Source: Bacillota bacterium (lineage in GTDB: Bacteria > Bacillota > Clostridia > Christensenellales > UBA1242). Taken from it: DNA of 48,631 nt. The stretch's first letter is position 1. Each line of letters begins with the position of its first letter. The stretch spans positions 1 through 48,631 of the forward strand of contig WRAD01000003.1 in the NCBI GenBank assembly GCA_009780375.1, written 5' to 3'. Below, piece by piece: positions 1-14,423 of the stretch. Under the pieces are notes generated by a model that was not told the origin of the DNA, did no database searches, and worked only from the letters and a program-made list of their open reading frames with translations. A program made the position numbers and the translations under genes.

Positions 1-452
1 GGTTTCTTTCTTCTAAAAAAGCCTAAGATAGTTTTTTTACTTCTTTTTGTCATTTGATGATTATCTTGCTCAAGATAATTTTTGTTCCCATATGTTCGAT
101 GATGTTGATACTGCTCTTCTGAATTAAAATAGGATTTGCGTATATTTCCATTTTTATTGAAATCATTTAATTGTGGGTTATCAGGCAACGGTATGTTCTT
201 TTTGTTATTATGCCACTTTGAGTGAGTTAACCCAGCTGATTTTCGCATGTTGCCTTGTTTTTCAAAAAGCCAAGACTTGTGTTTTGTCTTTTTATTAAAC
301 CTTATTTCACTACAGGGGCGTGACTGCGAGTCTTTTTGCAATAATTGTTCTAATCTTCGCTTTGCAAAGTCATGCTCTCCTCGCGTTAAATTGGGATTAT
401 TCATCCTTTCCAAATAATATTTTTGCTTTTCTTTGTCGGAGTGTTTTTTCAT
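1..452 (-). CDS. Hypothetical basic Lys/Asn-rich protein, 3' partial (runs off the window)
   Basis: My manual minus-strand translation from the ATG at 452..450 gives MKKHSDKEKQKYYLERMNNPNLTRGEHDFAKRRLEQLLQKD... and stays open to position 1. The ATG overlaps the TGA of the upstream ORF (ATGA at 449..452). It is absent from the ORF track, presumably because no stop lies in the window. Confidence 0.45.
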   Translation of the reverse strand, partial: MKKHSDKEKQKYYLERMNNPNLTRGEHDFAKRRLEQLLQKDSQSRPCSEIRFNKKTKHKSWLFEKQGNMRKSAGLTHSKWHNNKKNIPLPDNPQLNDFNKNGNIRKSYFNSEEQYQHHRTYGNKNYLEQDNHQMTKRSKKTILGFFRRKK

Positions 453-901
453 TCTTCCTCATCCCATTGATCTTGACCTGGCGGCAATGCCTGGCGTTGC
501 GATGGTGCGTTCAAAATTTCACTAGGTTTATTCGGCGATAATTTTGCTTGCTCTGATGTGTTTTTACGCCCAGCTTCACGTTGCTTCTTGGCTTCCTCAC
601 GCTCAATACGCAGTTTATTCTTGGCTTTTTTGAGTTGTTCATCTACTTCATTCATACGTTCGTAAACTTCCTCAATGCAATAGAATCGGGATATAAACTT
701 GCCTAGAAATGGGTGCGTGAGTTTGAAAAGCGTTCTCTTGCGTGCCTTGGTTAAAAGTATTTTAACCTCTAGCATTTCCGCCTCAATCATTGGTGTTGGC
801 ACAAAACGTTTCCACCCGTCGAACAAATACATGTAATATTTAAACAAATCAATGTAAATTTCATGCAGACGCAGCAGTGTTATTTTAGGTGATTTAGTCA
901 T
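449..901 (-). CDS. Hypothetical protein with basic coiled-coil C-terminal half (element gene)
   Basis: 150-aa ORF with SD AAAGGAG 8 nt upstream of the ATG. It overlaps the stop of the ATPase gene by 8 nt and is ATGA-coupled to the next ORF. No recognisable motif. Confidence 0.6.
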   Translation of the reverse strand: MTKSPKITLLRLHEIYIDLFKYYMYLFDGWKRFVPTPMIEAEMLEVKILLTKARKRTLFKLTHPFLGKFISRFYCIEEVYERMNEVDEQLKKAKNKLRIEREEAKKQREAGRKNTSEQAKLSPNKPSEILNAPSQRQALPPGQDQWDEEE

Positions 902-1796
902 AAAAATACTCCTTTGAGTTTAAGTCTTTTTCGTTATAATAGTCCATATATGCTTGCCTGGTGTGTGCTGGCGGATAGATATGTTTTAATTCATAATCTT
1001 GGTTCAGGTTGCCCTGAATGAAGTCAGGTTCGCAACCGTAACTGTCATAGTTGTTGCGAATATCGAACGGAATAATATAAATTTCTGTTATGTAATTTTT
1101 GGTGGTTTTACCGCTTGCAAGATATTTTTCGTATTCGCTACCGTTTGCAAAATGCCGGTTTGTCCATTTTGTATGGATTGAATATCCAGACTTGCTTTTA
1201 ATAAATTCAACCGTTTGAATTTCTATTACACCAGCCAAAACTCTAATTCGATACGCAATGTCACCATATTCTTGCGTGTCCATGAGGATGCGTAGGCGAT
1301 AATGGCGATACCGTTTAAAGAATTTTTTTTGGCAAGGCAAAAGATTTTTCCAGTTGTGACTGTCTAACGCTTCCCCTGCTTCTTGAAGTCCAAGTATCGA
1401 ACCAGGGGGAATAAATTGCGGATCTATAAGCTGAATTTTCCTGCCAGTTTTTTTACATGTAGCAATATGTGTACCGTCTTTGACTGCAAGCCGTTCAAGT
1501 TCGACATTCCATGCTTTGCGAGGCGAATAGCCCCATTCTTCAGCCACAAGGTGAAAATTTGCGCACACCGAATGTTCATACGGTTTTGTGAGGTTAAACC
1601 CACCTTCAATCTTAAGTTGAACCTGGTCACAAGTTTCTTCGTGTAGGTCATGGTCAAACATCGCCTGTGACAATTTGCCCGTTATGTAGGAAGTTTTACC
1701 CGTACCAGGCAACCCAACAACAATTTTAAAGCAAGGTTTTTCAAAGAGATATAGGTTTTCAACGACTTGACCGTTGTATGTTATTGGCGATGTCAT
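894..1796 (-). CDS. Zot / inovirus pI-like P-loop NTPase (assembly ATPase-like), no TM segment
   Basis: Walker A is VVGLPGTGKTS. A Walker-B-like strand is SILGLQEAGEAL. The segment YRHYRLRILMDTQEYGDIAYRIR resembles the Zot-family HRH-G-D---TQ block. SD is AGGTGGTGAG. The 300-aa protein has no hydrophobic segment. Confidence 0.65.
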   Translation of the reverse strand: MTSPITYNGQVVENLYLFEKPCFKIVVGLPGTGKTSYITGKLSQAMFDHDLHEETCDQVQLKIEGGFNLTKPYEHSVCANFHLVAEEWGYSPRKAWNVELERLAVKDGTHIATCKKTGRKIQLIDPQFIPPGSILGLQEAGEALDSHNWKNLLPCQKKFFKRYRHYRLRILMDTQEYGDIAYRIRVLAGVIEIQTVEFIKSKSGYSIHTKWTNRHFANGSEYEKYLASGKTTKNYITEIYIIPFDIRNNYDSYGCEPDFIQGNLNQDYELKHIYPPAHTRQAYMDYYNEKDLNSKEYFYD

Positions 1797-1804
1797 CTCA
1801 CCAC

Positions 1805-2608
1805 CTACGACACAAAGACGTCAAGGCGAATTGTGAAATTTAGGGCGTATTGGTTGTTGGTAGAAAGATTGCCCGTCATTAAACGAAGTTCCCCATTTTC
1901 TGTAATTCGTACAATACGTGTTGAAAGTTGACCAATGCTTATCATAAACACATAAAATGGTATATGGTATGGTCTGAATGCTTGCGGTAAACTTCCGATA
2001 ACGTTATTTGAAGTAGGGGTTGAGAATATAATAGAAGCGTGCAGGGTGTGACCTATTCTTACAAGTGTGTTTTGTGTAACTTCTCTACCTGTAGGAATTG
2101 AAAACTGCCCAAACTGTGGCGTAACGGTGGTCATATCAGACAACTGTTGTTCAAGATTTTGAATTCTGTCGTTAAGATTTGATATTTGGTTCAGGTGAGA
2201 TTGAATTTGATTATTCAAATTTTGCCTTTGCTGTGTTAAGTCTTGAATTTGTTCCAATAGATTGGTTATGCTTTCAAGATAATCTTCGTCAATTAAGGCA
2301 AGTAATTCGTCTAGCCATATATTTACCCTTTCAATTTCTGCCATGTGTTCAACAATTTCCCTATTCAATTCTTCTATCTGAAACAATAAAGTCCTTGTCT
2401 GTGCCTCTAACTGTTCACGTAGTAATTGACCTTGCCTTAGTCCGTCATTATGTGCGTTTTCAAGGTCGGCACGTGTATACAAATCTGCACCGCCCATGCC
2501 ATGACGAATTGCACCCCAATTCGAAGTCCCCCAAAGTATACCAAACGTCAAGACAGATACAAGCAATACGGCAATTACAATTGTGAATATTTTGTTTTTA
2601 TTTTCCAT
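1805..2608 (-). CDS. N-terminally membrane-anchored coiled-coil protein with C-terminal beta-rich domain
   Basis: TM helix IFTIVIAVLLVSVLTFGILWG, followed by a long Q/N/L heptad-like stretch (IQDLTQQRQNLNNQIQSHLNQISNLNDRIQNLEQQL) and then about 100 aa that are non-helical. SD is AAAGGA. Confidence 0.65.
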   Translation of the reverse strand: MENKNKIFTIVIAVLLVSVLTFGILWGTSNWGAIRHGMGGADLYTRADLENAHNDGLRQGQLLREQLEAQTRTLLFQIEELNREIVEHMAEIERVNIWLDELLALIDEDYLESITNLLEQIQDLTQQRQNLNNQIQSHLNQISNLNDRIQNLEQQLSDMTTVTPQFGQFSIPTGREVTQNTLVRIGHTLHASIIFSTPTSNNVIGSLPQAFRPYHIPFYVFMISIGQLSTRIVRITENGELRLMTGNLSTNNQYALNFTIRLDVFVS

Positions 2609-2620
2609 AATTTTATCCTT

Positions 2621-3142
2621 TTATTTAATCTCGTTTATATGTAAACGGAAAGTATTATCAAGTAAAAAAGCGTGCATTAATGCTTGTTCTTGGAAACCTT
2701 GCACCGTTACCCTTAGTTCTGTTCGCATATTCCAAAACAATATTTGTATATTAAGGTTTGCAGTTATGATATACGAGCCGTCAATATAATAAAAACTAAA
2801 CGGAATAGTTGCACGGACAAACCTTTCGCCGATTTCTGCATCAAATATGACATTGCCATTAAATTCAAGGTAATACTCGAATACGTCACCTGCAAATGAT
2901 GGTACGGGCAATAACGCAAGTTCTTCGTATACGAACAAATCAAAATTATCTGAACATGGTGAAAAGAAAACACCGTTTGTAACATATGAAAAACTTTCTT
3001 GTGAAAAACGATTATTTATGTCTATAGAACCCCTTTGAAAACCTGTGCGTGTTAGTTCGTTAACCGTTAATATCATTGAAAAACCCCCAAAGAAGATAAT
3101 TAAAATACACACAAGCCAGTGCGACATTTTATTAGGAAACAT
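2621..3142 (-). CDS. Membrane-anchored hypothetical protein (pVI-position gene)
   Basis: 173-aa ORF with N-terminal TM HWLVCILIIFFGGFSMILTV. SD is GGGGGTGG. The start overlaps the end of the upstream ORF by 11 nt. Confidence 0.6.
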   Translation of the reverse strand: MFPNKMSHWLVCILIIFFGGFSMILTVNELTRTGFQRGSIDINNRFSQESFSYVTNGVFFSPCSDNFDLFVYEELALLPVPSFAGDVFEYYLEFNGNVIFDAEIGERFVRATIPFSFYYIDGSYIITANLNIQILFWNMRTELRVTVQGFQEQALMHAFLLDNTFRLHINEIK

Positions 3143-4439
3143 GAGCCACCCCCTGTAATTGATTGTGATTGTCTATTAAATTGACTGTACCGCCTATCTG
3201 AATATTTGAAACAATGGTATTGTAAAAAGCAAATTGCAAGATGTTAAAATCTCCACTTCCACGTATTCTAAGCATGTGAATATTCAAATATCGTAAACCG
3301 TTAAAGTCAATTCCACGGATATTATTAAAACCAGCCTGTATGTCTACAATTAGATAAAATCTACGCATATCAAACAATTGTGTTCTTGCACGATTTGAAA
3401 GTGATATCACATAACCGTTATGTAATTGTGAAAAACGCTTATCAAAACTTTGTTCGGTTAGCCTAACGTGTTGACGATATGTCGCAAAATTTGAATTATA
3501 TTCACTGTCGTTTAAATCAAAATCACCACGCCCACCTATCATATTAAATAATGACTGTCTGGCGTTTCTAAAACCGTTGTGATTAATAGAAATGCGTACC
3601 ATGGCATAGGTATCGACCCTGTCAACTGGTTCACGTTGAACAGTACCGCCTCTAATTTCATTAATTTGCAATAAATCAAATAAGGGTAATATGACGTCAA
3701 ATGTGCCTTGTCTTTGGTATGTTCCATCAAGTGTTACTATGTTGTTTAATGAATTAAAAACCACGTGGTTAAAAATTCTGTCCCAATTATTATAATGCCT
3801 GCGGTTAGAGCCAACACGAATATTGATTAATGGATTGGTAAGCAAAGAAGCACTTTCGCCAGTGTTCCAATGATTTAAAACGCTTACTTGATATGGTCTG
3901 CCGTCAATAGGTATTGTCATGACTACATCACGCCTAAAATGAAAATCGTTAACAACTTGGCTTTGATATGAAGTCATAACACCACGTAAGCCGTGTTGAC
4001 TTGCTCTTTGATTTATTGTGTTTTCACTTGGTGACCATGAAGTCCTGCCAACAATAAAATTTGTTCGGCTTGCTCTCCATCTGTTGGTATCAAACATAAA
4101 CCTTGGCTCTGTTCTGTGTAGCCACTGTAAACCATATGACATTTTGTGGTCGGGGTTGTCAACCCTTAACCCTAAAAAATGATTGAATTTTATTTCACTA
4201 AAGAAATACCCATTTCTATTTTGGTTTGTAAAGATATTGACTTCGATAAAGGGTCGGGATTCACGCTCTTCGTTTGTTGCTTCTCGAATATAGTTAGTAT
4301 CGCCAATAATATTTACACCACGCAAATCACGGGTAAAAAATGCAAAAACATACGCCATAATCATAATTGCAATAATACCAAGTGCGGTTAACCCGATCAT
4401 GCCAATCTTGATTACTTTTACTGAAATTGTATCATTCAT
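3132..4439 (-). CDS. Large N-terminally membrane-anchored protein (candidate adsorption or minor-coat protein, pIII position)
   Basis: The ORF track starts at a TTG (4466). The ATG at 4439 follows SD AGGAGG and overlaps the stop of the 56-aa ORF (ATGA). The N-terminus is MNDTISVKVIKIGMIGLTALGIIAIMIMAYVFAFF (TM), followed by about 400 aa with no recognised motif. Confidence 0.6.
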   Translation of the reverse strand: MNDTISVKVIKIGMIGLTALGIIAIMIMAYVFAFFTRDLRGVNIIGDTNYIREATNEERESRPFIEVNIFTNQNRNGYFFSEIKFNHFLGLRVDNPDHKMSYGLQWLHRTEPRFMFDTNRWRASRTNFIVGRTSWSPSENTINQRASQHGLRGVMTSYQSQVVNDFHFRRDVVMTIPIDGRPYQVSVLNHWNTGESASLLTNPLINIRVGSNRRHYNNWDRIFNHVVFNSLNNIVTLDGTYQRQGTFDVILPLFDLLQINEIRGGTVQREPVDRVDTYAMVRISINHNGFRNARQSLFNMIGGRGDFDLNDSEYNSNFATYRQHVRLTEQSFDKRFSQLHNGYVISLSNRARTQLFDMRRFYLIVDIQAGFNNIRGIDFNGLRYLNIHMLRIRGSGDFNILQFAFYNTIVSNIQIGGTVNLIDNHNQLQGVAHVS

Positions 4440-4606
4440 ATTAAACCTCCTAATATTCCACCCCAACCAAACCAGTCAATACCCGTTGCTATCCATCCCA
4501 ATGCAATAGCAAGAAAATTAAATATCCTTGCAACAAGCATCAAAGGAAATGCCCCAAAAGGTATTGTCAAAAATAAGGCTATGCCGATGATTAAACCTAC
4601 TTTCAT
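4436..4606 (-). CDS. 56-aa double-hydrophobic-segment protein (candidate virion coat or small membrane protein), below ORF-track cutoff
   Basis: Manual translation gives MKVGLIIGIALFLTIPFGAFPLMLVARIFNFLAIALGWIATGIDWFGWGGILGGLI. Strong SD GGGGGTGGGG lies 2 nt before the ATG. The stop overlaps the start of the downstream ORF (ATGA at 4436..4439). Confidence 0.55.
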   Translation of the reverse strand: MKVGLIIGIALFLTIPFGAFPLMLVARIFNFLAIALGWIATGIDWFGWGGILGGLI

Positions 4607-4618
4607 AACCCCACCCCC

Positions 4619-5545
4619 TTATAATGCACCAGCAAGGTTTGACGCAAAAAAGAAAACGGTATGACCAGTAATTACACGTGTTGTGATATCAATAGGGTTG
4701 CCGACTTCAGCATGTGAAAGCACCCAACGATGAGAAGAACCACCAGACGGTGGGAATGGTTGGGCGGTGGGGTTTCCGCCACTTATAACGACTTGTTGGG
4801 CAAAGACTGTGTTACCGTTCATAAACACAACAGAAAAACGTTGTACGTTCTGCGAGCCTGTAAGTTTATTTTGCAACTCTGTTATTGTTTGGTTCAGGGT
4901 TGTTATAGTACCATTTGCGGTACTTACTTGACCGCTTATCGAGTTAACTTGGTTTGTTAGGTTTGTGACCTGTGATGTAAGTGAATTAATTTGTTCAAGT
5001 TTAAGTACCACTTGATAGTGGTACAGATTTGCCAGATCACCAAGCACTTCAACCTTTTCTTGCATGTCGTCAATGACTTCTTGCATGTCGGTAACTTGTG
5101 TTTGCAAATCTTTAATAGTACCGGTGTTTGAAATAATCGTTGAGTTAAGCGTTTGTATTTGCTTTGTCAGGTCATATATGACTTCCGCATGGTCGCCGTT
5201 GTTGTCGATGACCTGGGTAAGTGTATATATTATGCCTTCAAGTTGTGTAACCTGTGCCGTCATGTTTTGATTAAGGTCTTGCAGTTGCGATATCTTTGTT
5301 TCAAGCGACCCAACCTGTGACCGATATAATTGTACAAGGTTTTGCAATGCATCAAGGTCTGGATCTGATGGGTTGTAATTGTCATTGTCGCACGGTTCGT
5401 AGCTACAGTGATATTCGTTGTCGGGGGTAGTGTTCTCACTAGAGTCAGAAAACCATTCGAGGTGGAAATGACCGACGAGTAATATTGTGGCCGATATCAC
5501 CGCTATTATCGTCATTGCAATTATGGATTTGAATGTTTGTTTCAT
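4619..5545 (-). CDS. N-terminally membrane-anchored coiled-coil protein with C-terminal Listeria-Bacteroides (InlB B / Flg_new)-like repeat
   Basis: TM helix IIAMTIIAVISATILLVGHF, then about 170 aa of Q/T/L-rich coiled coil. The C-terminus FSVVFMNGNTVFAQQVVISGGNPTAQPFPP...HRWVL...VITGHTVFFFA fits the Flg_new repeat pattern. Confidence 0.65.
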   Translation of the reverse strand: MKQTFKSIIAMTIIAVISATILLVGHFHLEWFSDSSENTTPDNEYHCSYEPCDNDNYNPSDPDLDALQNLVQLYRSQVGSLETKISQLQDLNQNMTAQVTQLEGIIYTLTQVIDNNGDHAEVIYDLTKQIQTLNSTIISNTGTIKDLQTQVTDMQEVIDDMQEKVEVLGDLANLYHYQVVLKLEQINSLTSQVTNLTNQVNSISGQVSTANGTITTLNQTITELQNKLTGSQNVQRFSVVFMNGNTVFAQQVVISGGNPTAQPFPPSGGSSHRWVLSHAEVGNPIDITTRVITGHTVFFFASNLAGAL

Positions 5546-5607
5546 TGTTTTTCCTTTATTTAGGAAATGCTCACTTCTCCCGGTGTGAGCTACCGTTAAT
5601 TAATAGA

Positions 5608-5636
5608 TTGATTTTTCTTGTCGGTTCATGTATAAT
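5608..5636 (+). promoter_or_regulatory. Sigma-A-type promoter for the plus-strand nuclease-like gene
   Basis: TTGATT (5608..5613), a 17-nt spacer, then TATAAT (5631..5636). It lies about 38 nt upstream of the ATG, which carries SD GGGGAGGA. Confidence 0.55.
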
Positions 5637-5674
5637 GACTAGGACAAGTTATATTAAATTGTGGGGAGGAATAA

Positions 5675-6223
5675 ATGCCAGCACCAATGTGTAAAAAATG
5701 CAAACAGAATAAAGCGACATATCTTTACTGGTATAACTCTTACTCGGACCTATGTACTGATTGTTATTACGACAAACAATCTGATTCCAAAGATGATGGT
5801 GAAGAAGTTACTGAAGTGGAGCAGGATTCCACAAATAACTATGCAAAACCTAAAAACGAAAGAGATAAATGGGGATTGCCCGAAATTCGTGCTCAATCAG
5901 GACATAGAGTAAGGAGTCGCGGTGAATGTTTAATTGCCAACTGGCTTTACGACAATCGAATACTTTTTGAGTATGAGCGTATCGTATATTTAAATAGTGA
6001 CACCCAGCGTTATCTCATTTCTGACTTTTATTTACCCGATGCTAAACTTTACATAGAGTATTGGGGATACAAAGACAAAGGGAGTTATAATTTAAGGAGA
6101 GATGAGAAAGATACAATTTACAAAGAAAAGGAACTTAATCTGTTAAATGTTGAAGACCATCACATTAACTCTTTGGATGATTTTTTACGCAAAAACTTAA
6201 TCAAGCACTTCAAACATCTTTGA
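5675..6223 (+). CDS. Zinc-ribbon plus PD-(D/E)XK-like nuclease domain protein (only plus-strand gene in the element)
   Basis: The N-terminus carries CKKCKQ...CTDC (four Cys). The C-terminal half, RSRGECLIANWLYDNRILFEYE...ISDFYLPDAKLYIEYWGY, resembles the restriction-endonuclease-like module seen at the N-termini of helicase IV / plasmid Rep-type helicases (E ... D ... E-x-W/K arrangement). Confidence 0.55.
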   Translation: MPAPMCKKCKQNKATYLYWYNSYSDLCTDCYYDKQSDSKDDGEEVTEVEQDSTNNYAKPKNERDKWGLPEIRAQSGHRVRSRGECLIANWLYDNRILFEYERIVYLNSDTQRYLISDFYLPDAKLYIEYWGYKDKGSYNLRRDEKDTIYKEKELNLLNVEDHHINSLDDFLRKNLIKHFKHL

Positions 6224-6693
6224 ATTCGCTTTTTGGTGTGGCTTTTTACGGCTCAGCTGGCTTTGTGGTATTGTTTCTGTTATTTGGCATATGATTTATT
6301 TCTCCTTTTAATCGTCCAAAGTCTCCCTTGTCTGCAGGTTTTACGTCACGATGGACGTCCTATTTTTGTTTTAAACTACTTTTTCTTGAGTGCTATCAGT
6401 ACATGACATCGTAGATAATATTTTTTTCGTATAATCTCATTTCCTTTTAATCGCCTATTTTTAACGTCTGGCTATTCGACGTGTGGGGGCGGTGTTGGAA
6501 TTGCACCAACTGCAAAACGTGTTTTCATTTGCATACAAATCACACTCTAATCTGCAAACTTGTTACCGCCCGTATTCGGACTTGTTTTTGGCCTTGCTAA
6601 GTCCATAACGCAAGGGGTAAGTCAGGAAAATACTTAAGGAGGTTAAAAACCCTATTACCATTGGGTGGCAGTTTTTACACGTGCCACAGGTGT
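6224..6693. other. About 470-bp non-coding region inside the element (candidate origin, packaging or regulatory region)
   Basis: No ORF of 60 aa or more on either strand, and no convincing SD-led small ORF. Short hairpins occur at 6343..6358 (ACGTC/GACGT), 6493..6510 (GTTGG/CCAAC) and 6665..6687 (GTGGCA/TGCCAC). A TTTT(T)AC(G) motif recurs. Confidence 0.3.
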
Positions 6694-6846
6694 CTATACA
6701 TGTTTTAGGTCGGTGAACTTTACGATTTTAAAACCGTATCTTTTCATCTTTTCGACAAGGTTATTGGCTTGCCTTTCTGTAACCGCATAAAGCGAATGCA
6801 GGGTATTTTGCCTGTCTTTATAAGTGATTTCATAACGGAACTTCAC
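6694..6846 (-). CDS. Possible 50-aa protein (GTG start), below ORF-track cutoff
   Basis: Manual translation gives (M)KFRYEITYKDRQNTLHSLYAVTERQANNLVEKMKRYGFKIVKFTDLKHV. AAGGCGG lies upstream of the GTG. The ORF overlaps the 3' end of the preceding ORF by 17 nt, and its composition looks protein-like. Confidence 0.35.
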   Translation of the reverse strand: MKFRYEITYKDRQNTLHSLYAVTERQANNLVEKMKRYGFKIVKFTDLKHV

Positions 6847-7087
6847 AAGTCACCGCCTTAAAATCGTTGATGTTATAAACCTTGATGTGCATGAACTTGC
6901 CTACGATTTGCAAGTTGCCAATTTTGGCTATAAAGTCCGCACGTTTATCTTTTAACATCTCTTTAAAATCTTTGATAGTCATTTCAATACCATGCTTTTT
7001 TAAAAACTTTGCATTGATTTCACTTTTGATAAAATGATTTCGGGTATACCGTGGGTCATCATAAATACAGCGGATGTGATTGAACAT
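6830..7087 (-). CDS. Hypothetical protein (element early-region gene)
   Basis: The ORF track starts at a GTG (7099). The ATG at 7087 is preceded by GAGGTG, which overlaps the stop of the upstream ORF. No recognised motif. Confidence 0.55.
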   Translation of the reverse strand: MFNHIRCIYDDPRYTRNHFIKSEINAKFLKKHGIEMTIKDFKEMLKDKRADFIAKIGNLQIVGKFMHIKVYNINDFKAVTCEVPL

Positions 7088-7095
7088 AACGCACC

Positions 7096-7716
7096 TCACT
7101 TGTTTTTAAGTTTGGCACGCTCCATGGCAAGCCCTGCAAATACAAGAAATTCCATATCTTCATAGCCAAACGCATGTGTAAAAGTCTGACCTTTACCCAA
7201 GTTAAACTCTATTCCGTAAAACTTATGACCTGGCTTGCTCCTGCTGTCAAGCCTGCCTACGACAAACGGAATATCTTTGTTTGCCCCAAGAAATTCTAAA
7301 ATGTCCCTTGCCACTTGATTTCTAAAAGGCACATAGTCCTTTTTAGCCCCCTCGTATTCCGCACGCACGGCGATATGTTCTTGCTTAAACCCAGGTACAA
7401 CCCTTGTTTTTCCTGTGTACACTTTGTCTTTGAATTTTGATGACAGCACAAAGATTTCAATAAGTTTTCTTGATGTCTTTTCTTCTTCGTCAAGTTTAAT
7501 TTCTACAAACTCTTCAAGGTCTGCGTACTGGTCATTATCAAATTGTGCGACTTCTTCAGGTGTGTTTACTTCACTCTTGGGTACAGTATTTGTCTGTTCG
7601 ACTGTCGAACTTGTCACCGTTTCTTCAGGCGTGTTTTCTGTTGTGACTTGTGCGATGGTTTCTTGCACTGCGGTTTCTACTTCATTTTTTACTTGTTTTT
7701 TTACTTGATTGCTCAT
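7096..7716 (-). CDS. Hypothetical protein with acidic, T/E/V-rich disordered N-terminus and a globular C-terminal domain of about 130 aa
   Basis: 206-aa ORF with SD AAGGAGA. No recognised motif. Confidence 0.6.
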   Translation of the reverse strand: MSNQVKKQVKNEVETAVQETIAQVTTENTPEETVTSSTVEQTNTVPKSEVNTPEEVAQFDNDQYADLEEFVEIKLDEEEKTSRKLIEIFVLSSKFKDKVYTGKTRVVPGFKQEHIAVRAEYEGAKKDYVPFRNQVARDILEFLGANKDIPFVVGRLDSRSKPGHKFYGIEFNLGKGQTFTHAFGYEDMEFLVFAGLAMERAKLKNK

Positions 7717-7761
7717 GGCTAATCTCCTTTAACTTTTTTAATTTCTAACCCATCCCAAACC

Positions 7762-8001
7762 CTAGTAATTCGATATAACTTCAATACCTTTGTCTACTAG
7801 TTCGCACTTGCAAGAAACAATCTTGTTTCGCAAATTTGCAAGCAAACTAACAATCTCATTTAAACGAGCATTTCTACAACAAAACAAATCTAACATTTCA
7901 TCAATGCCATCAATGTACTCGTTCAATTTCTCAACGGCTTCAATCGTCCTACGCAACGCAACATCCGCCGCACGCTCGCCTGTTTTCCTAACTCTGTTCA
8001 T
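7762..8001 (-). CDS. Hypothetical small helical protein
   Basis: 79-aa ORF with strong SD AAGGAGG 5 nt upstream of the ATG. Confidence 0.6.
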   Translation of the reverse strand: MNRVRKTGERAADVALRRTIEAVEKLNEYIDGIDEMLDLFCCRNARLNEIVSLLANLRNKIVSCKCELVDKGIEVISNY

Positions 8002-8030
8002 GGTTACCTCCTTTTTTTGATGTTTGTTGC

Positions 8031-8231
8031 TTAGTTGTTTAGTAAGTTCCTAAGTCGTTGTTGAGTGTGAAGTAGTTCGTCGAGTTCTTCAAGATCTGCC
8101 AATCTTTTTCTTAGCCTTGAATTTTCTTTCTGAAGTTCCACTTTCTCAAGCCTCATAGCCCATACTTCTTTCGTGAATTGATCAAGCAACTTTGATACTG
8201 GACATTCACGCTTTTTTTGGTAAGTCGCCAT
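8031..8231 (-). CDS. Small coiled-coil (leucine-zipper-like) protein, first gene of the element block
   Basis: The ATG at 8231 is preceded by GGGGGAAG. The sequence is MATYQKKRECPVSKLLDQFTKEVWAMRLEKVELQKENSRLRKRLADLEELDELL. The ORF-track start at 8252 is upstream of the SD. Confidence 0.5.
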   Translation of the reverse strand: MATYQKKRECPVSKLLDQFTKEVWAMRLEKVELQKENSRLRKRLADLEELDELLHTQQRLRNLLNN

Positions 8232-8263
8232 TCTTCCCCCTTTTAACCTCAATTTGTAAATAC

Positions 8264-8292
8264 ATTTTAAGGTATAAGCGGTTGCAATTCAA
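8264..8292 (-). promoter_or_regulatory. Sigma-A-type promoter candidate driving the element's first operon
   Basis: The minus strand reads TTGAAT (8292..8287), a 17-nt spacer, then TAAAAT (8269..8264). It lies between the hslV terminator and the ORF at 8231. Confidence 0.4.
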
Positions 8293-8298
8293 TATGTA

Positions 8299-8329
8299 CA
8301 AAGAAAAACGCTACCTGTTAGATAGCGTT
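8299..8329 (-). terminator. Rho-independent terminator after hslV
   Basis: On the minus strand a 7-bp stem AACGCTA/TAGCGTT (8329..8323 and 8313..8307) with a 9-nt loop is followed by TTTCTTTG. Confidence 0.6.
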
Positions 8330-8350
8330 ATTTAAGATGTTTCAAAGGCT

Positions 8351-8893
8351 TTAAACCTCTTCGACAGTTATGTTTCCATTTGTAAACACGCAGAGTTCGC
8401 CCGCTATGCGAAGTGCCTCTTTGGTTATTTCAAGTGCAGAAAGTTTGGTATTTGCGGCCAAGGCCTTTGCGGCGGCAAAAGCATAGTTTCCGCCCGAACC
8501 AATCGCACAAATGCCTTTTTCTGGCTCGATTACGTTACCATCTCCAGAAATTATAAGAAGTTTTTCTTTGTCCGCGACAATCATCATGGCCTCAAGATTA
8601 CGAAGATATCTGTCACCGCGCCATGCCTTTGCAAGTTCCACCGCACCACGCATAAGATTGCCACTGAATTTCTGTAACATTTCCTCGAAACGATCACTTA
8701 GTGTGAATGCATCGGCAACGGACCCTGCGAAACCTACAATTACCTTGTTATCATACATTCTGCGAACTTTTACCGCGTTACCTTTAAGAATAACACTTTG
8801 TCCCATGGTTACTTGGCCATCACCCGCGATTACCGTTTTCCCGTCACGTTTTACCGCCACAATAGTTGTTCCATCCAGATGCATATTTGACAT
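8351..8893 (-). CDS. hslV: ATP-dependent protease subunit HslV (ClpQ/CodW)
   Basis: [45 protein letters not shown] matches the HslV N-terminal Thr and GDGQVT region, with a short B. subtilis CodW-type propeptide. The 180-aa length is typical. Confidence 0.85.
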
Positions 8894-8961
8894 TTTGATT
8901 CTCCTTTTTGATTATAACACAGGGATTATCCAGTAATATAGATAATTTCTAATATCAGTAA

Positions 8962-11019
8962 TTATGAACACTCGCGATTATTGCATTTTTCTTTTTTATC
9001 TTTCGGATTAATTACAATAGCAGATCCACATCTTTCACAAAGTTTACCTGTTGGTTGATCCCATGCAACAAAGTCACAGTTTGGATATGATGAACAACCA
9101 AAGAAAATTTTTCCTTTTTTGCTTTTGCGTTTATAGATATCGCCTTTATGTGTATCTGCACATTTTGGACATTTACAAATTGGTTTGTCAAATGGCTTTG
9201 CATTACGGCATTCAGGAAAACCTGGACATGACAAAAATTTTCCAAATCTGCCTATACGCACAATCATCATCTGTCCACATTTTTCGCATGCTGTGTCAGA
9301 AATTTCGGTGGCTATTGTAATATTATCCTCACCTTCCATTGCCGTCTCGATATCTTTTTCAAATGGCTTATAAAATTCATCTATAACAGTTATCCATTCT
9401 CTTCCCTCATATGCAATTTCGTCAAGCTTTTCCTCAAGTCCTGCGGTGAATTCTATATTCATTATATTAATAAAATACTTTTCCAAAAGATCACAGATTA
9501 CAAAACCAAGCTCGGTTGGTTTAAGAACTTTGCCATCTTTTTCAATGTAATAGCGAGCAATTATATTTTGTATAATTGGATTGTATGTTGCAGGACGACC
9601 AATCCCAGCCTCTTCCATTGCTTTGACAAGTGTTGCTTCGGTATATCGTGCAGGTGGCTTTGTAAACTTTTGAGTGTATTCAAGTTTAATGAACTTTGGC
9701 GTGTCACCTTCAACAAGTTCAGGTAAACGCGATTGCTCTTCATCTGCTTCGTCTTCGTCTTTTACGTATAATACTCTCCATCCGTCAAATATTGGTGTAC
9801 GTCCACTTACACGAAATCCATAGCCATTTGCATCTATATCAACAGAAGTTGAATTATATGTTGCTTCGGTCATTTGAGACGCCAAGAAACGATTATATAT
9901 AAGCCTGTATAGTTTGGCTTGGTCGGCCTCTAGGAATTTTGAAACACGCTCGGGGGTAAGTTCAATATTGGTTGGTCTGATTGCTTCGTGAGCATCTTGT
10001 GCAGATTTTTTGCTTTTGTAAAAATTAAATTTTTCAGGGGCATATTCTTTACCAAAATTTGCAAGTATCCATTCTTTTGCCTGGGCCTGGGCATCTGGTG
10101 ATACGCGGACACTGTCTGTACGAATATAAGTTACAAGGGCGGTTTTTCCGTCTTCCCCAATATTAACACCTTCATAGAGCTGCTGTGCCGCACGTCCTGT
10201 TCGAGCAAGGCTCATACCTGCTTTGTTAAGGGCATCTTGTTGAAGAGAACTTGTTGTATATGGTGCAGGTGCATTAGAACGAGTAACGCTTTTCTTAACG
10301 GCGATGACCTTATAAGTTGCACCGTCTATTGCTTTTACCACAACGTCAACATCTTCTTTGTTTACAAGTTGAAGTTTTTTACCATCAAGCCCTGTTCTTA
10401 GAGATGCACGAAAACCGATGCTATCCTTTTCCAGATGTGAAAAGAAATCCCAGTATTCTTCTGGTTTGAAATTAACAATTTCGCGTTCACGTATACAAAC
10501 AAGTTTAAGTGTCACAGATTGAACACGTCCAGCGGATAATTTTGTCTTTTTGACCTTTTTACAGACAACAGGAGAAAGTTTATATCCAACAAGCCTGTCA
10601 AGAATCCTTCTTGCCTGTTGAGCATTAACCAAATCCATATCAATTGCACGTGGTTCAAGCAGAGCGTTTTGAATTGCTTTTTTTGTAATCTCGTTAAAAA
10701 CAATGCGTGTTGCATTTTGTGGTTTGATTCCTAGAATATGGGCAAGATGCCATCCAATTGCTTCTCCTTCTCGATCCGGGTCGGTTGCAATTAAAACTTC
10801 ACTTGCTTTTGCCGCTTTGTCTTTAAGTTTTTTTGCTTGCTCTTCTTTATCTTTCATGACTTTGTACTTTGGAGTATAGTTATTTTCAACATCAACAGAA
10901 AGAACCCTTTTTTGAAGGTCTCTAAGGTGCCCACCAGTTGCCATGACTTCGTAACCTGGTCCGAGATATTTTTTAATTGTATCTTTTTTACCAATACCCT
11001 CGATAATAACAAGTTTCAT
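8962..11019 (-). CDS. topA: DNA topoisomerase I
   Basis: 685 aa. Toprim N-terminus (MKLVIIEG..., DPDREGEAI), type IA core (RVQSVTLKL, YIRTDS) and C-terminal CxxC zinc ribbons. Confidence 0.95.
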   Translation of the reverse strand: MKLVIIEGIGKKDTIKKYLGPGYEVMATGGHLRDLQKRVLSVDVENNYTPKYKVMKDKEEQAKKLKDKAAKASEVLIATDPDREGEAIGWHLAHILGIKPQNATRIVFNEITKKAIQNALLEPRAIDMDLVNAQQARRILDRLVGYKLSPVVCKKVKKTKLSAGRVQSVTLKLVCIREREIVNFKPEEYWDFFSHLEKDSIGFRASLRTGLDGKKLQLVNKEDVDVVVKAIDGATYKVIAVKKSVTRSNAPAPYTTSSLQQDALNKAGMSLARTGRAAQQLYEGVNIGEDGKTALVTYIRTDSVRVSPDAQAQAKEWILANFGKEYAPEKFNFYKSKKSAQDAHEAIRPTNIELTPERVSKFLEADQAKLYRLIYNRFLASQMTEATYNSTSVDIDANGYGFRVSGRTPIFDGWRVLYVKDEDEADEEQSRLPELVEGDTPKFIKLEYTQKFTKPPARYTEATLVKAMEEAGIGRPATYNPIIQNIIARYYIEKDGKVLKPTELGFVICDLLEKYFINIMNIEFTAGLEEKLDEIAYEGREWITVIDEFYKPFEKDIETAMEGEDNITIATEISDTACEKCGQMMIVRIGRFGKFLSCPGFPECRNAKPFDKPICKCPKCADTHKGDIYKRKSKKGKIFFGCSSYPNCDFVAWDQPTGKLCERCGSAIVINPKDKKEKCNNRECS

Positions 11020-11068
11020 ACGTTAATCCCTTTAATATTAATTATTTGTTTTGTTGCGGGAGTTATGA

Positions 11069-12157
11069 CTAGGTCTTTTTGTAATAATTGCCTGCCAGTT
11101 TTTTAATTAAACCACTCATCTCCATATTTGTCAACAAAGTTGAGAGTTTGTGTACAGGCAATCCAATTTCTTCAATAAGCCCGTCAAAATGTACCTCTTT
11201 ATTGCCTATTGTGTCAAGCACTTGTTTTTCATCAAATGAGAGTTGTATAAAAGCGTTTTCCCGTTGCGGTGATTTTTCATATACACCAAATGCATCAAGC
11301 ACATCTTGGGCATTTGTTGCAATTGCCCCGCCTTCTTTTATAAGTTGGTTCGTTCCCCTTGACACGTAACTTGTAATTGGTCCAGGCACCGCATATACAT
11401 CAATGCCTACGTCCTGGGCACATTTCATTGTTATCATTGTACCGCTTTTCAAATCTGCCTCTACAATTACAAGTGCGTTTGATAATGCTGCAACAATTCG
11501 GTTACGTTGAGGGAAAGTAAATTTTGCACCTGAGAAATTAGGCAAATATTCTGATAACACAAGACCGTATTTTGTAATCTTTTGCTGGAGCCCTGTATTT
11601 GACGCCGGATAAAAAGTATTTATACCATTACCCAAGACCGCAATTGTATGTAATAGAATTTTTGAATCTGGAGACTTGTCTTGTTTTAAATCAAAAGATT
11701 TAATTGCACCTAGATGAGCATGTGTATCTATTCCATCGGCAAGCCCTGAAATAACCACAATGCCCTTATCTGCAAATTTCTTTGCAAAATCTTTTGCAAC
11801 CTCTTCGCCGTAATGCGTACATTTGCGTGTGCCTATTATTGCCACAGCAGATTTGGTTAAAAGTTCCAAATTGCCTCGCGCATATAACACAAGTGGTGGA
11901 TTTTCCAGATTACGCAAACGATATGGATAGGTCTTTGATTCGCGAGTAATTACATGAATTTCTTGGTCATAAAGGTTTTTAATAAACGATTTTAATAAAT
12001 CTTTATCACACATTGACAAGATTTTTTCAAAACGTTTCGCATTTTGTTCGTCTTTATAAGTCCCAAGCATTTGCTTGAAGAGTTCCAAGTTTTCAAATTC
12101 CCTAGATATTGCAATCAATGCAAGTTCAGCAATTGTAAAGTTTTCATATGTGTTCAT
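11069..12157 (-). CDS. dprA: DNA-processing protein DprA/Smf
   Basis: GLADGIDTHAH, FPQRNRIVAALS and VIVEADLKSGTMIT motifs typical of DprA. The dprA-topA order is conserved in Firmicutes. Confidence 0.9.
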   Translation of the reverse strand: MNTYENFTIAELALIAISREFENLELFKQMLGTYKDEQNAKRFEKILSMCDKDLLKSFIKNLYDQEIHVITRESKTYPYRLRNLENPPLVLYARGNLELLTKSAVAIIGTRKCTHYGEEVAKDFAKKFADKGIVVISGLADGIDTHAHLGAIKSFDLKQDKSPDSKILLHTIAVLGNGINTFYPASNTGLQQKITKYGLVLSEYLPNFSGAKFTFPQRNRIVAALSNALVIVEADLKSGTMITMKCAQDVGIDVYAVPGPITSYVSRGTNQLIKEGGAIATNAQDVLDAFGVYEKSPQRENAFIQLSFDEKQVLDTIGNKEVHFDGLIEEIGLPVHKLSTLLTNMEMSGLIKKLAGNYYKKT

Positions 12158-12229
12158 TATTCTTTAATTATACATCAATAACAAAGATTTGCACGCAACA
12201 AAACCAAAATATTTTATAAAATAATGAAG

Positions 12230-13789
12230 TTAAACCTTGTATTTGCGATCAAGTGAACGATATGAAACCGCCTCGATGATATGGTCCGAAGTTATATTTT
12301 GAGAATTTTCCATATCGGCAATGGTGCGAGCAACACGAAGGATTCTGGTATATGCGCGGGCTGAAAGAGAGAGTTTTTCAAATGCATCCTTAAGCACACG
12401 TTCAGAATCTCTATCAAGAATACAATATAATTTTGTTTCCACTTCTGTCATTTTGGCGTTACAAAATATTTCGGTTTCACCAGTATTTTTCACGGAATTG
12501 GCCTTAAAACGATCAACTTGTATTTGGCGTGCACAATCAACGCGAGACTTTACATCTGCACTTGTCTCAGAAGTCGAAGTCGACGCAAGATCGTCATACG
12601 TTATGTTATCGACCTCTATATGAAGATCGATTCTGTCCATAAGTGGACCTGACAGTTTTGATAGATATTTATGAATTATATTTGGGCGGCATGAACATTT
12701 TTGAACACGAGAACCATAGTTTCCACAGGGACATGGATTCATACTTGCAACAAGTGTGAACCCCGCCGGATAATTCACGGTTGAATGAGCACGTGCGATT
12801 GTTATTGCATTATCTTCAAGTGGTTGGCGAAGCATTTCAAGTGACGCACGTGGATATTCAGGCATTTCATCAAGAAAGAGTACACCATGATGAGCAAGTG
12901 AAATTTCACCAGGCTTTGAATTAGAACCTCCGCCTGCAAGTGCAACAAGCGAAGCGGTGTGATGAGGGGTTCTGAATGGGCGGGTTGCAACTATGCCTTT
13001 GCCCGCGTCAAGTGTTCCAGCAATACTGTGAATTTTTGAAACCTCTATACTTTCTTGAAATGATATATCTGGCAATATAGTGGGAAAACATTTTGCAAGC
13101 ATGGTCTTACCACTTCCTGGCGGACCAATCAATAAAATGTTATGGCCACCGGCCGCCGCAATTTCAAGTGCCCTTTTTGCGATAAACTGGCCCCTTACAT
13201 ATTTTAAATCAAGTGGGTACTTTGCATCATTCTGCACTTCGGTAAAATCTCGTTTTATTACCGAATCAAGTGCCTTTTCTCCGTTAAGTGCATTTACAAC
13301 CTCTTTAAGAGTTGATGCAATAAACACAGTTATGCCATGAATAAACGAAGCCTCATGAGCATTTGCATGAGGTATAATAACCTTTTTAATTCCTTGCTTT
13401 TGTGCAGAAATCAAGATTGGTAATATGCCTTTGACCGAGCGAATTTCTCCATCAAGCCCAAGCTCTCCAATAAATGCAAATTCTGAAACTTTTTCATCAT
13501 AAATTAATTCATTTGTACAAAGCAAGAGGCCTATTGCAATTGGCAAATCGTATAATGCACCCTCTTTACGCGTATCGGCAGGTGCAAGGTTAACTACTAT
13601 TTTTTGTGATGGAAATGACAAGCCACTGTTGCGAATTGCGGACTCTACCCTTTCCTTGCTTTCCTTAACCGTTGCATTAGGAAGACCTACCAAGTGATAT
13701 TTAGGCAATCCTCTACTTGTGTCTACCTCGACATCAACAATATATCCATCAATGCCTGTTATACCAAAACTTTTAACTTTATGTATCAT
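12230..13789 (-). CDS. comM: Mg-chelatase-like AAA+ protein YifB/ComM
   Basis: Lon-protease-like N-domain, Walker A GPPGSGKTMLA, Walker B VLFLDE and a ChlI-type C-terminus. The ORF-track start at 13825 is a TTG, so I use the ATG at 13789 (MIHKVKSFGITG). Confidence 0.88.
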   Translation of the reverse strand: MIHKVKSFGITGIDGYIVDVEVDTSRGLPKYHLVGLPNATVKESKERVESAIRNSGLSFPSQKIVVNLAPADTRKEGALYDLPIAIGLLLCTNELIYDEKVSEFAFIGELGLDGEIRSVKGILPILISAQKQGIKKVIIPHANAHEASFIHGITVFIASTLKEVVNALNGEKALDSVIKRDFTEVQNDAKYPLDLKYVRGQFIAKRALEIAAAGGHNILLIGPPGSGKTMLAKCFPTILPDISFQESIEVSKIHSIAGTLDAGKGIVATRPFRTPHHTASLVALAGGGSNSKPGEISLAHHGVLFLDEMPEYPRASLEMLRQPLEDNAITIARAHSTVNYPAGFTLVASMNPCPCGNYGSRVQKCSCRPNIIHKYLSKLSGPLMDRIDLHIEVDNITYDDLASTSTSETSADVKSRVDCARQIQVDRFKANSVKNTGETEIFCNAKMTEVETKLYCILDRDSERVLKDAFEKLSLSARAYTRILRVARTIADMENSQNITSDHIIEAVSYRSLDRKYKV

Positions 13790-13845
13790 TAATACTAATC
13801 TAGCGATATTTGTAGAAATTTGCAAATGAATTTACAAGTTTTGTA

Positions 13846-13874
13846 TTGACAATAACTATATTTAATGTTATTAT
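13846..13874 (+). promoter_or_regulatory. Sigma-A-type promoter
   Basis: TTGACA (13846..13851), a 17-nt spacer, then TATTAT (13869..13874), upstream of the ORF starting at 13959. Confidence 0.5.
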
Positions 13875-13958
13875 ATTATGTTTTCACCCCGCATAAGGTA
13901 CGGGCAAATTTATCTGACTTTAATAACTGCGAAAAGCAGAAAGAAAGGAAGTAGACAA

Positions 13959-14333
13959 ATGTCTAATTTGAAAAACAATCCTAGTTTCCAAGATGATTTG
14001 GCAAGGACAAGTTTAATTGCCTTTGTCAATGCATTGCATCCATCAAACGGTGCAAAAAAGCCAATTCTCAAAATTATTGGCTTGATCGAGACAAATACTT
14101 TGACTTATTACTACATGGCATCAATCACAAGTCCATTCTATTTTATGAGCATTGCTAATGATCATAAACAATGGAAAAGTGCTTGTGAGGCACTCAGGAA
14201 ACATATCAAAAATCTTGAGCAATTAGATTGCCCACAAGAAGTCATAGTAATTTTGAAAAGATTTGTCAAAAAAGTTACAGACAGGTACTCACCTAATAGC
14301 CTGTTCTCACCAGGCAGAAAAGTAGGGTGTTAA
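13959..14333 (+). CDS. Hypothetical protein (124 aa)
   Basis: The ATG at 13959 follows GAAAGGAAG. The ORF is followed by a clean terminator. No recognised motif. Confidence 0.5.
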   Translation: MSNLKNNPSFQDDLARTSLIAFVNALHPSNGAKKPILKIIGLIETNTLTYYYMASITSPFYFMSIANDHKQWKSACEALRKHIKNLEQLDCPQEVIVILKRFVKKVTDRYSPNSLFSPGRKVGC

Positions 14334-14349
14334 CCTGAGTAACACTAAG

Positions 14350-14375
14350 AAGAGCGATTGATTCGCTCTTTTTTA
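14350..14375 (+). terminator. Rho-independent terminator
   Basis: Stem AAGAGCG/CGCTCTT with loop ATTGATT, followed by a T-run. Confidence 0.75.
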
Positions 14376-14376
14376 T

Positions 14377-14418
14377 AGTCTAGGAAATTATACATTCGTG
14401 GACATTAAGGAAAAGATT
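14377..14418 (+). repeat. Intergenic repeat, copy A (agtctaggaaattatacattcgtggacattaaggaaaagatt)
   Basis: Matches 21892..21932 with one indel and one mismatch, in the same orientation. Confidence 0.8.
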
Positions 14419-14423
14419 TAATA

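Follow-up and report, generated by a model that had tools for sequence, protein, structure and literature searches.

Why would a filamentous-phage-like element, with its genes otherwise all on one strand, hold a single gene that faces the other way and has a strong promoter of its own? This question is raised by P0001, a 182-amino-acid (aa) protein encoded in the stretch of DNA analyzed here, positions 1 to 48,631 of contig WRAD01000003.1 (assembly GCA_009780375.1) from a Bacillota bacterium of the Christensenellales (UBA1242), which is referred to as the window. The window is the first 48.6 kb of this contig (C3) in a genome of 689 kb that is 65% complete, and the gene lies in DNA read as part of an inovirus-like prophage. 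The protein consists of a zinc ribbon and a C-terminal domain for which a PD-(D/E)XK nuclease fold is supported by modeling. The favored reading, to which a probability of roughly one half is attached, is that P0001 is made in the lysogen, where it would cut incoming foreign DNA as a nuclease for defence or superinfection exclusion. It is favored because of the fold, the conserved acids, the restriction genes near its relatives, the swapped target-reading domains and a phage position suited to expression in the lysogen.

The gene, its signals and the protein

The gene and its product comprise the following features (nt, nucleotides; pLDDT, predicted local distance difference test).

5608..5636, plus strand: sigma-70-like promoter, TTGATT (5608-5613), 17-nt spacer, TATAAT (5631-5636)
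5665..5669, plus strand: Shine-Dalgarno sequence GGAGG, 5 nt ahead of the ATG
5675..6223, plus strand: open reading frame (ORF) of P0001, 182 aa plus stop, from the ORF listing and translation
5690..5764, plus strand: zinc ribbon C6-x2-C9...C27-x2-C30, residues 6-30, from sequence and cysteine conservation
5765..5854, plus strand: acidic low-complexity linker, residues 31-60, modeled as disordered (pLDDT <50 for residues 38-59)
5855..6220, plus strand: predicted Vsr-like PD-(D/E)XK nuclease domain, residues 61-182, from the fold model, invariant columns and a match to PDC-S69
5924-5926, 6023-6025, 6056-6058 and 6107-6109, plus strand: codons of domain residues E84, D117, E128 and K145
6224..6693, no strand: 470-nt gap that separates the nuclease gene from the next minus-strand ORF and contains no convincing gene
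6343..6368, plus strand: terminator-like hairpin and T run, 120 nt past the stop of P0001

The signals agree with a preliminary description of this DNA, which had noted a near-consensus promoter (TTGATT-17-TATAAT) and a strong Shine-Dalgarno sequence on the only plus-strand gene of the element. The promoter matches at 10 of 12 positions; it is the joint best among 16 promoter-like sites in 4000-9000 and the only one of them placed just upstream of a gene start. The sequence collection's own gene call uses an alternative start at Met5 (P0002, 178 aa), and a Shine-Dalgarno sequence is present only at the 5675 ATG. P0001 is the sole convincing plus-strand gene in 1-8300, where the other credible genes are all on the minus strand; the one other plus-strand ORF that reaches 100 aa there, at 2179-2586 with a TTG start, is antisense to a conserved minus-strand gene that contains it. 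The P0001 unit breaks up a minus-strand gene array, and transcripts from 6694 toward the gene starting at 5545 would run antisense to it, as had been said of transcription into the structural module. By the conservation of its relatives (16 at E <= 1e-3 among 33 candidates), P0001 is a real gene, and it is found unchanged, on short contigs, in two DNA runs labeled termite gut metagenome. The gap at 6224-6693, inspected for an origin-like structure, is not unusually structured (z +0.45) and its repeats are only short and two-copy.

The CxxC...CxxC ribbon that had been recognized at the N-terminus is well founded in that all four cysteines are retained in the nearest relative, P0003 (66-70% identical), and the ribbon is repeated two to five times in P0004 and P0005. 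Against Pfam, it gives a weak match to DUF7685 that falls below the cut-off (E 0.0077), and its AlphaFold2 (AF2) model is of low confidence (pLDDT 43-53). The C-terminal motifs quoted in the preliminary description can likewise be found in the protein, and no part of the family is more conserved.

This C-terminal half had been likened to a PD-(D/E)XK endonuclease, and such a core was recovered in the AF2 model, which was built on a 39-sequence alignment and reaches a pLDDT of 84-97 over residues 71-182 (mostly 84-97 over 61-182). The modeled elements, helix 82-93, strands 103-105, 113-120 and 125-130, helix 136-151 and strand 155-160, form the alpha-beta-beta-beta-alpha-beta core of the fold. 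When the model was compared to the full structural library using VIA-align, 56 chains were matched at Z >= 5, most of those listed being PD-(D/E)XK-fold nucleases. These include the catalytic domain of the homing endonuclease I-Bth0305I (3r3p; Z 10.8, root-mean-square deviation 2.5 A over 91 residues, 22% identity), NGO0050 (3hrl; Z 9.9), Vsr (1cw0; Z 9.4), TnsA (Z 8.5) and Bax1 (Z 8.4), with restriction enzymes, Can2/Card1 and Hjc further down the list. The top match is a RAP-domain protein of the mitoribosome (9g6k_L9; Z 11.4), and the RAP domain of FASTKD4 is found at Z 8.2. Foldseek gave 3r3p_A as its best match (E 2.4e-3, TM 0.75 by target). Because of these VIA-align and Foldseek matches, the assignment of the modeled domain to the Vsr-like branch of the PD-(D/E)XK fold is supported. 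Sequence comparison alone gave no matches in the Protein Data Bank (PDB), and PDB profile searches yielded nothing significant; the 3r3p row (E 0.52) served only as an alignment guide.

The candidate catalytic acids are present as well. E84 (helix 1), D117 (strand 2), E128 (strand 3) and K145, among others, are invariant in alignments of 16, 39 and 31 sequences. Each of the 9 proteins compared within the bacterial family of the window keeps the Glu, Asp, Glu pattern, and the pattern S..E / D[FW][YF] / E-x-x-G is found in 81 of the 82 ORFs of relatives, the exception being interrupted by a stop. That exception, L038 of Gracilibacillus kekensis, has the in-frame stop within its DF-Y-LP motif and is likely a pseudogene or a sequencing error. 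In the canonical (D/E)xK motif, a lysine lies two residues beyond the strand-3 acid. This position is occupied in P0001 by W130 and the position of the Vsr/EDxHD histidine by G131, both invariant, so that nuclease activity is not assured. From the alignments, from which the active-site geometry was also deduced, the invariant K145 on the next helix may stand in for the missing lysine.

The nuclease domain is, in addition, predicted to form a symmetric dimer. A model with two copies of the domain scored 0.72 versus 0.00 for the best control, with contacts at least 95% alike between runs and a partner pLDDT of at least 81. Among proteins solved as pairs, 20 of 30 reach the mark used, as does 1 of 23 solved as single chains; these counts are rough, as the analysis's own alignment was used. 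The modeled interface is made by a conserved hairpin (R72/G76/H77) and a strand (Y100/E101).

How close is the domain to enzymes that are known? Vsr and DUF559 proteins share the fold branch at the Z scores given above (9.4 and 9.9), but neither Pfam family is matched at E <= 10, P0001 has no catalytic His, and the zinc site of Vsr is internal to its domain whereas the ribbon of P0001 lies outside the nuclease domain. With I-Bth0305I and the EDxHD proteins (3r3p), P0001 has in common the Vsr-like fold variant, in which the helix Glu, strand-2 Asp and strand-3 acid correspond to E84, D117 and E128. Part of the published account of I-Bth0305I gives its active site as E170, D196, N208, H213 and D222, and its layout as bipartite, with a DNA-binding N-terminus and a C-terminal nuclease (PMC3239194), a layout that P0001 resembles. 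In contrast, P0001 has G131 at the position of H213 and a basic residue at that of D222, in an alignment that is weak (E 0.52); it has no NUMOD repeats; and its gene is free-standing with its own promoter, not in an intron or intein. P0001 thus belongs to neither the Vsr nor the EDxHD group.

The RAP matches suggest another possibility, namely that P0001 is a non-catalytic or RNA-directed nucleic-acid-binding protein of RAP type that acts as a regulator. The top VIA-align match and FASTKD4 agree with this, as does the loss of the canonical Lys and His. On the other hand, the three acids and K145 do not vary among thousands of diverged proteins, and the family is fused to helicases, UDG, DCD and HRDC and adjoins DNA restriction genes. 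A role of this kind is consequently held to be very unlikely.

A nuclease family near restriction genes

The domain belongs to a family that is large and has no entry in Pfam or NCBIfam. A Pfam hmmscan of P0001 at E <= 10 returned only DUF7685, on the ribbon, and neither Vsr (PF03852) nor DUF559 (PF04480). NCBIfam gave 0 families for P0001, and the C-terminal domain was covered by Pfam in 0 of 150 representatives at E <= 1e-4. A profile search with the domain, by comparison, retrieved 8344 cluster representatives at E <= 1e-3, 306 of them at <= 1e-30. In nearly all of 150 listed representatives the domain is C-terminal. Its N-terminal partners in this set include KilAC/ANT-like winged helices (10), DCD modified-base readers (8) and ankyrin repeats (4), together with single cases of zinc ribbon, HEAT, TPR, MORN, UDG, HRDC, RecD2 OB/HHH and others. 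DCD-PD(D/E)XK fusions are read, in part of the source, as restriction of modified DNA (PMC7641849).

Among defence-system models, the P0001 domain matches PADLOC PDC-S69 (model PDLC05067) at 7.7e-30, HEAT_CxxC_PDDEXK at 3.3e-11 and PDC-S68 at 6e-10. The likeness to PDC-S69 involves profile positions 160-283 of 289, the same invariant residues, and contexts that are both mobile and defence-related. P0001 does not span the whole model of 289 positions. Family members of ~295 aa do so, matching positions 1-289 at 1e-103 to 1e-120; this form is dominant in Bacillaceae, Paenibacillus, Neptuniibacter and Photobacterium, and 67 of the 82 ORFs of relatives are 280-330 aa long. Here, PDC-S69 proper has two KilAC/winged-helix-like repeats at its N-terminus, whereas in P0001 their place is taken by one zinc ribbon with a short linker. 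PDC-S69 is inferred, from its name alone, to be one of 145 'guilt-by-embedding' candidates. A literature search for 'HEAT_CxxC_PD-DEXK', or for HEAT+CxxC+PD-DExK+reverse transcriptase, gave no match, so that the HEAT_CxxC_PDDEXK system was not traced. P0001 is, in sum, a new architectural variant within a computationally flagged, uncharacterized nuclease family.

The genomic neighbors of this family point to restriction. Around 79 genome loci, the most frequent neighboring gene clusters are Mrr_cat at 21 loci, a PLD+ResIII type IV-like enzyme at 16 and HNH_2 at 13. The module had also been described as one fused to helicase IV-type helicases, and this proved correct: L087 (931 aa) combines Helicase_IV_N, UvrD-helicase and Zn_ribbon_Top1, and L086 (1200 aa) is a superfamily 1 (SF1) helicase. 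These modules (PDC-S68; L086, L087) contain the same domain as P0001 (6e-10 to PDC-S68; 30-35% identity by tblastn), but there it is one domain within proteins of 900-1200 aa, while in P0001 it stands nearly alone.

Recurrence in prophages and the host element

The domain profile finds the nuclease in 15 of 151 genomes of the window's bacterial family, versus 41 of 151 for relatives of Zot, the morphogenesis ATPase. In only 5 of the 41 Zot-positive genomes are nuclease and Zot no more than 15 kb apart. The nuclease gene is, then, accessory. It was not found as a conserved core gene of all related elements, the finding that would have spoken against the cargo proposal. The moron layout that had been suggested holds in that the gene is accessory and patchy; it does not hold as a one-off insertion, as the gene recurs in related prophages, usually in a repressor-integrase cassette.

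This recurrence was followed at eight nuclease loci outside the window and six Zot loci in the family. Four of the eight (L206, L207, L208 and L210, from four genera) have an operon-like cassette of an HTH_3 repressor, the zinc-ribbon nuclease and a tyrosine integrase, which ends at tRNA genes and diverges from the inovirus-like genes; in these cassettes, the nuclease start is 5-18 nt behind the HTH gene. At L209, the nuclease is inside an inovirus-like element and adjoins a PemK-like gene. At L211 and L213, it adjoins an rve/IS30-like gene and a rolling-circle Rep, and at L212 it is within other phage-like DNA. Beyond the family, L002, a 40.6-kb contig of an unrelated, non-filamentous temperate phage, has the order repressor, nuclease, unknown gene, integrase. 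The 10-kb contig L003 (IMGVR_UViG_2684623198_000002) contains, at 1676-8929, a pIV-like secretin and a Zot-like gene and, on the other strand, a nuclease-family gene for a 261-aa protein that adjoins a repressor/toxin (toxin-antitoxin) pair; it is an independent case of this family as inovirus cargo. As to L209, the gene directly upstream of the nuclease (6533-7375) encodes a 280-aa protein with a C-terminal PemK/MazF-like domain.

The proximity of such genes brings in the possibility of a toxin or addiction module, in which the nuclease would kill or arrest cells that lose the prophage or are infected, restrained by a partner that in relatives would be the upstream HTH protein. Consistent with this, HTH_3 is directly upstream in the four family loci and in L002, HTH clusters adjoin the nuclease in genome loci, and toxin-antitoxin-type genes adjoin it in L003 (a toxin/repressor pair by PHROG) and L209 (the PemK-like domain). 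Yet the window's gene stands alone, and since it has a strong promoter and no HTH partner, an uncontrolled toxin would hardly be tolerable there. Furthermore, the HTH genes of the cassettes occupy the position of a usual phage repressor and diverge from the phage operon. An addiction role is accordingly considered improbable.

The same cassettes bear on the homing-type nuclease that the preliminary description had listed as a candidate. As a selfish, free-standing enzyme, P0001 would cut nuclease-free relatives of the phage and spread via recombinational repair. In favor are the closest solved enzyme by Foldseek, which is the I-Bth0305I catalytic domain; the layout shared with that enzyme, as described in part of the source (PMC3239194); a weak PHROG 'homing endonuclease' match (4e-4); and the gene's own promoter and patchy distribution. 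Identities between cassettes also disagree for nuclease and integrase (60% vs 38%; 30% vs 62%), and co-divergence of the two, which was looked for between cassettes, was not found; the parts have therefore been shuffled. Against homing, the EDxHD His and last Asp are not kept (by the weak alignment at E 0.52, and by the invariant G131), there are no NUMOD repeats, intron or intein, and most family members are chromosomal, in restriction-gene neighborhoods. The same cassette position is, moreover, occupied in four genera at only 30-60% identity, and this constant slot suggests long residence, not recent invasion. The homing proposal is weakened by these points and now has a small chance of being right.

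A further proposal had been that P0001 is an unconventional replication-initiation nickase, which would account for the lack of a Rep gene. More broadly, the protein might process phage DNA, as such a nickase or as a nuclease that takes part in excision or has the replicative form or host DNA as its substrate. No Rep gene was found in the window's part of the element, and the nuclease recurs in inovirus-like prophages. In topoisomerase I, single-stranded DNA is bound by similar zinc ribbons. However, an ordinary HUH-type Rep gene (Viral_Rep or REP_ORF2-G2P type) lies 0.3-1.2 kb downstream of Zot in six of six related elements (L188, L189, L190, L206, L207, L208), which removes the need for a substitute. 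In the window, only 893 bases remain after Zot, the last ORF there runs off the end, and base 1 is the contig start; none of the contigs from the two termite gut metagenome runs reaches beyond this base. As the Rep position falls beyond the contig start, the missing Rep lends the nickase role no support, and the Rep of this element is most likely simply unassembled. Contig C7, with a match of 80 residues, gives the genome's only other trace of a Rep. In addition, P0001 has no HUH or Rep_trans signature among Pfam and PHROG matches, L206, L207 and L208 carry Rep and nuclease together, the nuclease is near Zot in so few genomes (5 of 41), and the same cassette is found in the non-filamentous phage contig L002. 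A part in DNA processing is thus quite doubtful.

The Rep types themselves differ among these elements: L188, L189 and L206-L208 have a CRESS-like Viral_Rep with RNA_helicase (S3H), whereas L190, L211 and L213 have REP_ORF2-G2P. Integration genes differ too among Zot-bearing elements, being a tyrosine integrase, an rve/IS30-like gene, or none seen. Replication and integration modules are exchanged around a morphogenesis core that is itself conserved.

Within the window, this core and the DNA on the other side of the nuclease gene are laid out as follows.

894..5545, minus strand: morphogenesis module of the putative inovirus-like prophage, from conserved gene order and Zot likeness
1805-2608 and 4619-5545: proteins with transmembrane (TM) and coiled-coil segments, as also at L190 10228-12798, L206 8879-11521 and L208 6300-8591
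6694..8252, minus strand: five ORFs (50, 89, 206, 79 and 73 aa), between the nuclease gene and hslV

The module encodes, in order, a 308-aa coiled-coil protein, a 56-aa TM protein, proteins of 444 and 173 aa, a 267-aa coiled-coil protein and a Zot-like P-loop ATPase (894-1796). From the 56-aa TM protein through the proteins of 444 and 173 aa and the coiled-coil protein to Zot, other elements show the same gene order. Compared with an annotated Inoviridae Zot, the ORF at 894-1796 has 29% identity across 81% of its length. It has no Pfam match, whereas the related ORF in L206 scores 25.8 bits with Pfam Zot, above the cut-off of 20.3. A scan of viral contigs with the Zot-like ORF gave 0 relatives. 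When 15 window proteins were compared by tblastn to 166 loci of nuclease relatives, no element protein was matched except Zot, in a bajarodino virus record that lacks the nuclease. The five ORFs at 6694-8252 have no family match; they are accessory DNA and are presumed, by position only, to be early genes; the 206-aa ORF occurs in 1 of 151 family genomes, namely the window's own.

From hslV (8351-8893) upward, the DNA is ordinary chromosome, with topA, dprA, an Mg-chelatase-like ATPase, transketolase and others, and nucleotide synteny with four genomes of the same genus (L219-L222) ends at 8347. The element below 8347 is read as an inovirus-like prophage cut by the contig start. No tRNA genes were found in the window, and a composition scan showed no break in GC content at the element. 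In the window and in L219 and L220, hslV (8253-8893 region) has no hslU after it, and the DNA downstream of hslV holds different genes in L219 and L220; the region next to hslV looks like a variable spot where the element sits.

The TM and coiled-coil morphogenesis proteins vary among elements in length, from 267 to about 880 aa, with repeated beta-rich C-terminal modules in the larger proteins, and they may be host-recognition proteins. In the coiled-coil gene at 4619-5545, contigs from both metagenome runs have a junction at about 5213-5304 by which 90 bases (30 codons) are skipped, and read depth is raised over 5304-5474, which suggests a length variant or a repeat shared with a second element.

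Such a second, related inovirus-like element does exist in the same genome (L188; contig C2, G000:C2:13000-32999, 5969-15792). Its Zot is 34-37% identical to that of the window and its homologue of the 444-aa protein 45% identical; past Zot are a Viral_Rep-type Rep (7301-8386) and an rve integrase (5969-7057). The slot equivalent to the nuclease is taken by a different gene, encoding a zinc-ribbon and TM protein (14155-14607, plus strand), again opposite to the phage genes.

Proposed function and its meaning

How, then, would P0001 act? In the favored reading, that of a defence or superinfection-exclusion nuclease, it would be transcribed from its own constitutive-type promoter, against the phage operons; as this promoter is on the opposite strand, its product can be present even when phage gene expression is off. 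The C4 zinc ribbon, next to the flexible acidic linker, would target nucleic acid. E84, D117 and E128 would hold the catalytic metal, with K145 or R141 on the following helix replacing the missing beta-strand lysine. As the modeled dimer is symmetric, its two active sites could cut both strands. Targets may be plasmids, other phages or, in the case of competing filamentous phages, their replicative form, and both lysogen and prophage would benefit, as with other genes housed beside prophage repressors. Prophage defence genes that are expressed in lysogeny and lie beside the repressor include lambda rexAB, sie/ltp of lactic-acid-bacterium phages and the defence genes of mycobacteriophages. The relatives of P0001 resemble these in that their nuclease is in an immunity/integration cassette, co-oriented with the repressor and opposite to the lytic operons; they differ in protein type, and the window has no repressor and integrase neighbors. 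Defence or superinfection exclusion had already been put forward in the preliminary description, and it is this suggestion that the restriction-gene neighbors, PDC-S69 and the prophage cassette position support.

Several observations weigh against this reading. In addition to W130 and G131, the best structural match of P0001 is to mitoribosomal RAP-domain proteins, which are RNA-associated. The nuclease gene of the window has no HTH or integrase neighbor, remnants of either were not found near P0001 (best E 0.07), and the cassette argument is carried over from relatives with 32-44% identity. The number of promoter-like sites in 4000-9000 does not exceed chance (16 vs 12.9 +/- 3.5 in shuffles). 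The defence neighborhoods were scored with the analysis's own crude ORF calls and single-linkage clusters, from which 3 of 82 loci dropped out. The name 'PDC-S69' was not found in a literature search, and the PADLOC PDC candidates are described as untested in part of the source paper (bioRxiv 10.1101/2024.01.29.577857). Finally, no basis was found for discrimination of self from non-self.

A narrower version is competition between filamentous phages. Here, a dimeric, ribbon-guided nuclease would destroy the double-stranded replicative form of superinfecting single-stranded DNA phages, or other incoming DNA, and the phage's own integrated copy would be spared. This is an unlikely but directly testable idea, because the host genome has two related elements, of which one has the nuclease. 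If it were true, the PDC-S69-type family would be a modular, single-gene restriction effector, whose specificity changes with a swap of the N-terminal reader.

With a ribbon and a 120-aa nuclease in 182 aa, P0001 is the smallest architecture seen in the analysis and is convenient for testing. Should the protein be inactive or purely selfish, it would be an ordinary mobile-element nuclease. If it is active, it would provide the first functional handle on a very large family, with 8344 representatives and no Pfam or NCBIfam entry, and it would mean that the filamentous prophages of small-genome gut bacteria house such nuclease genes in their immunity cassette.

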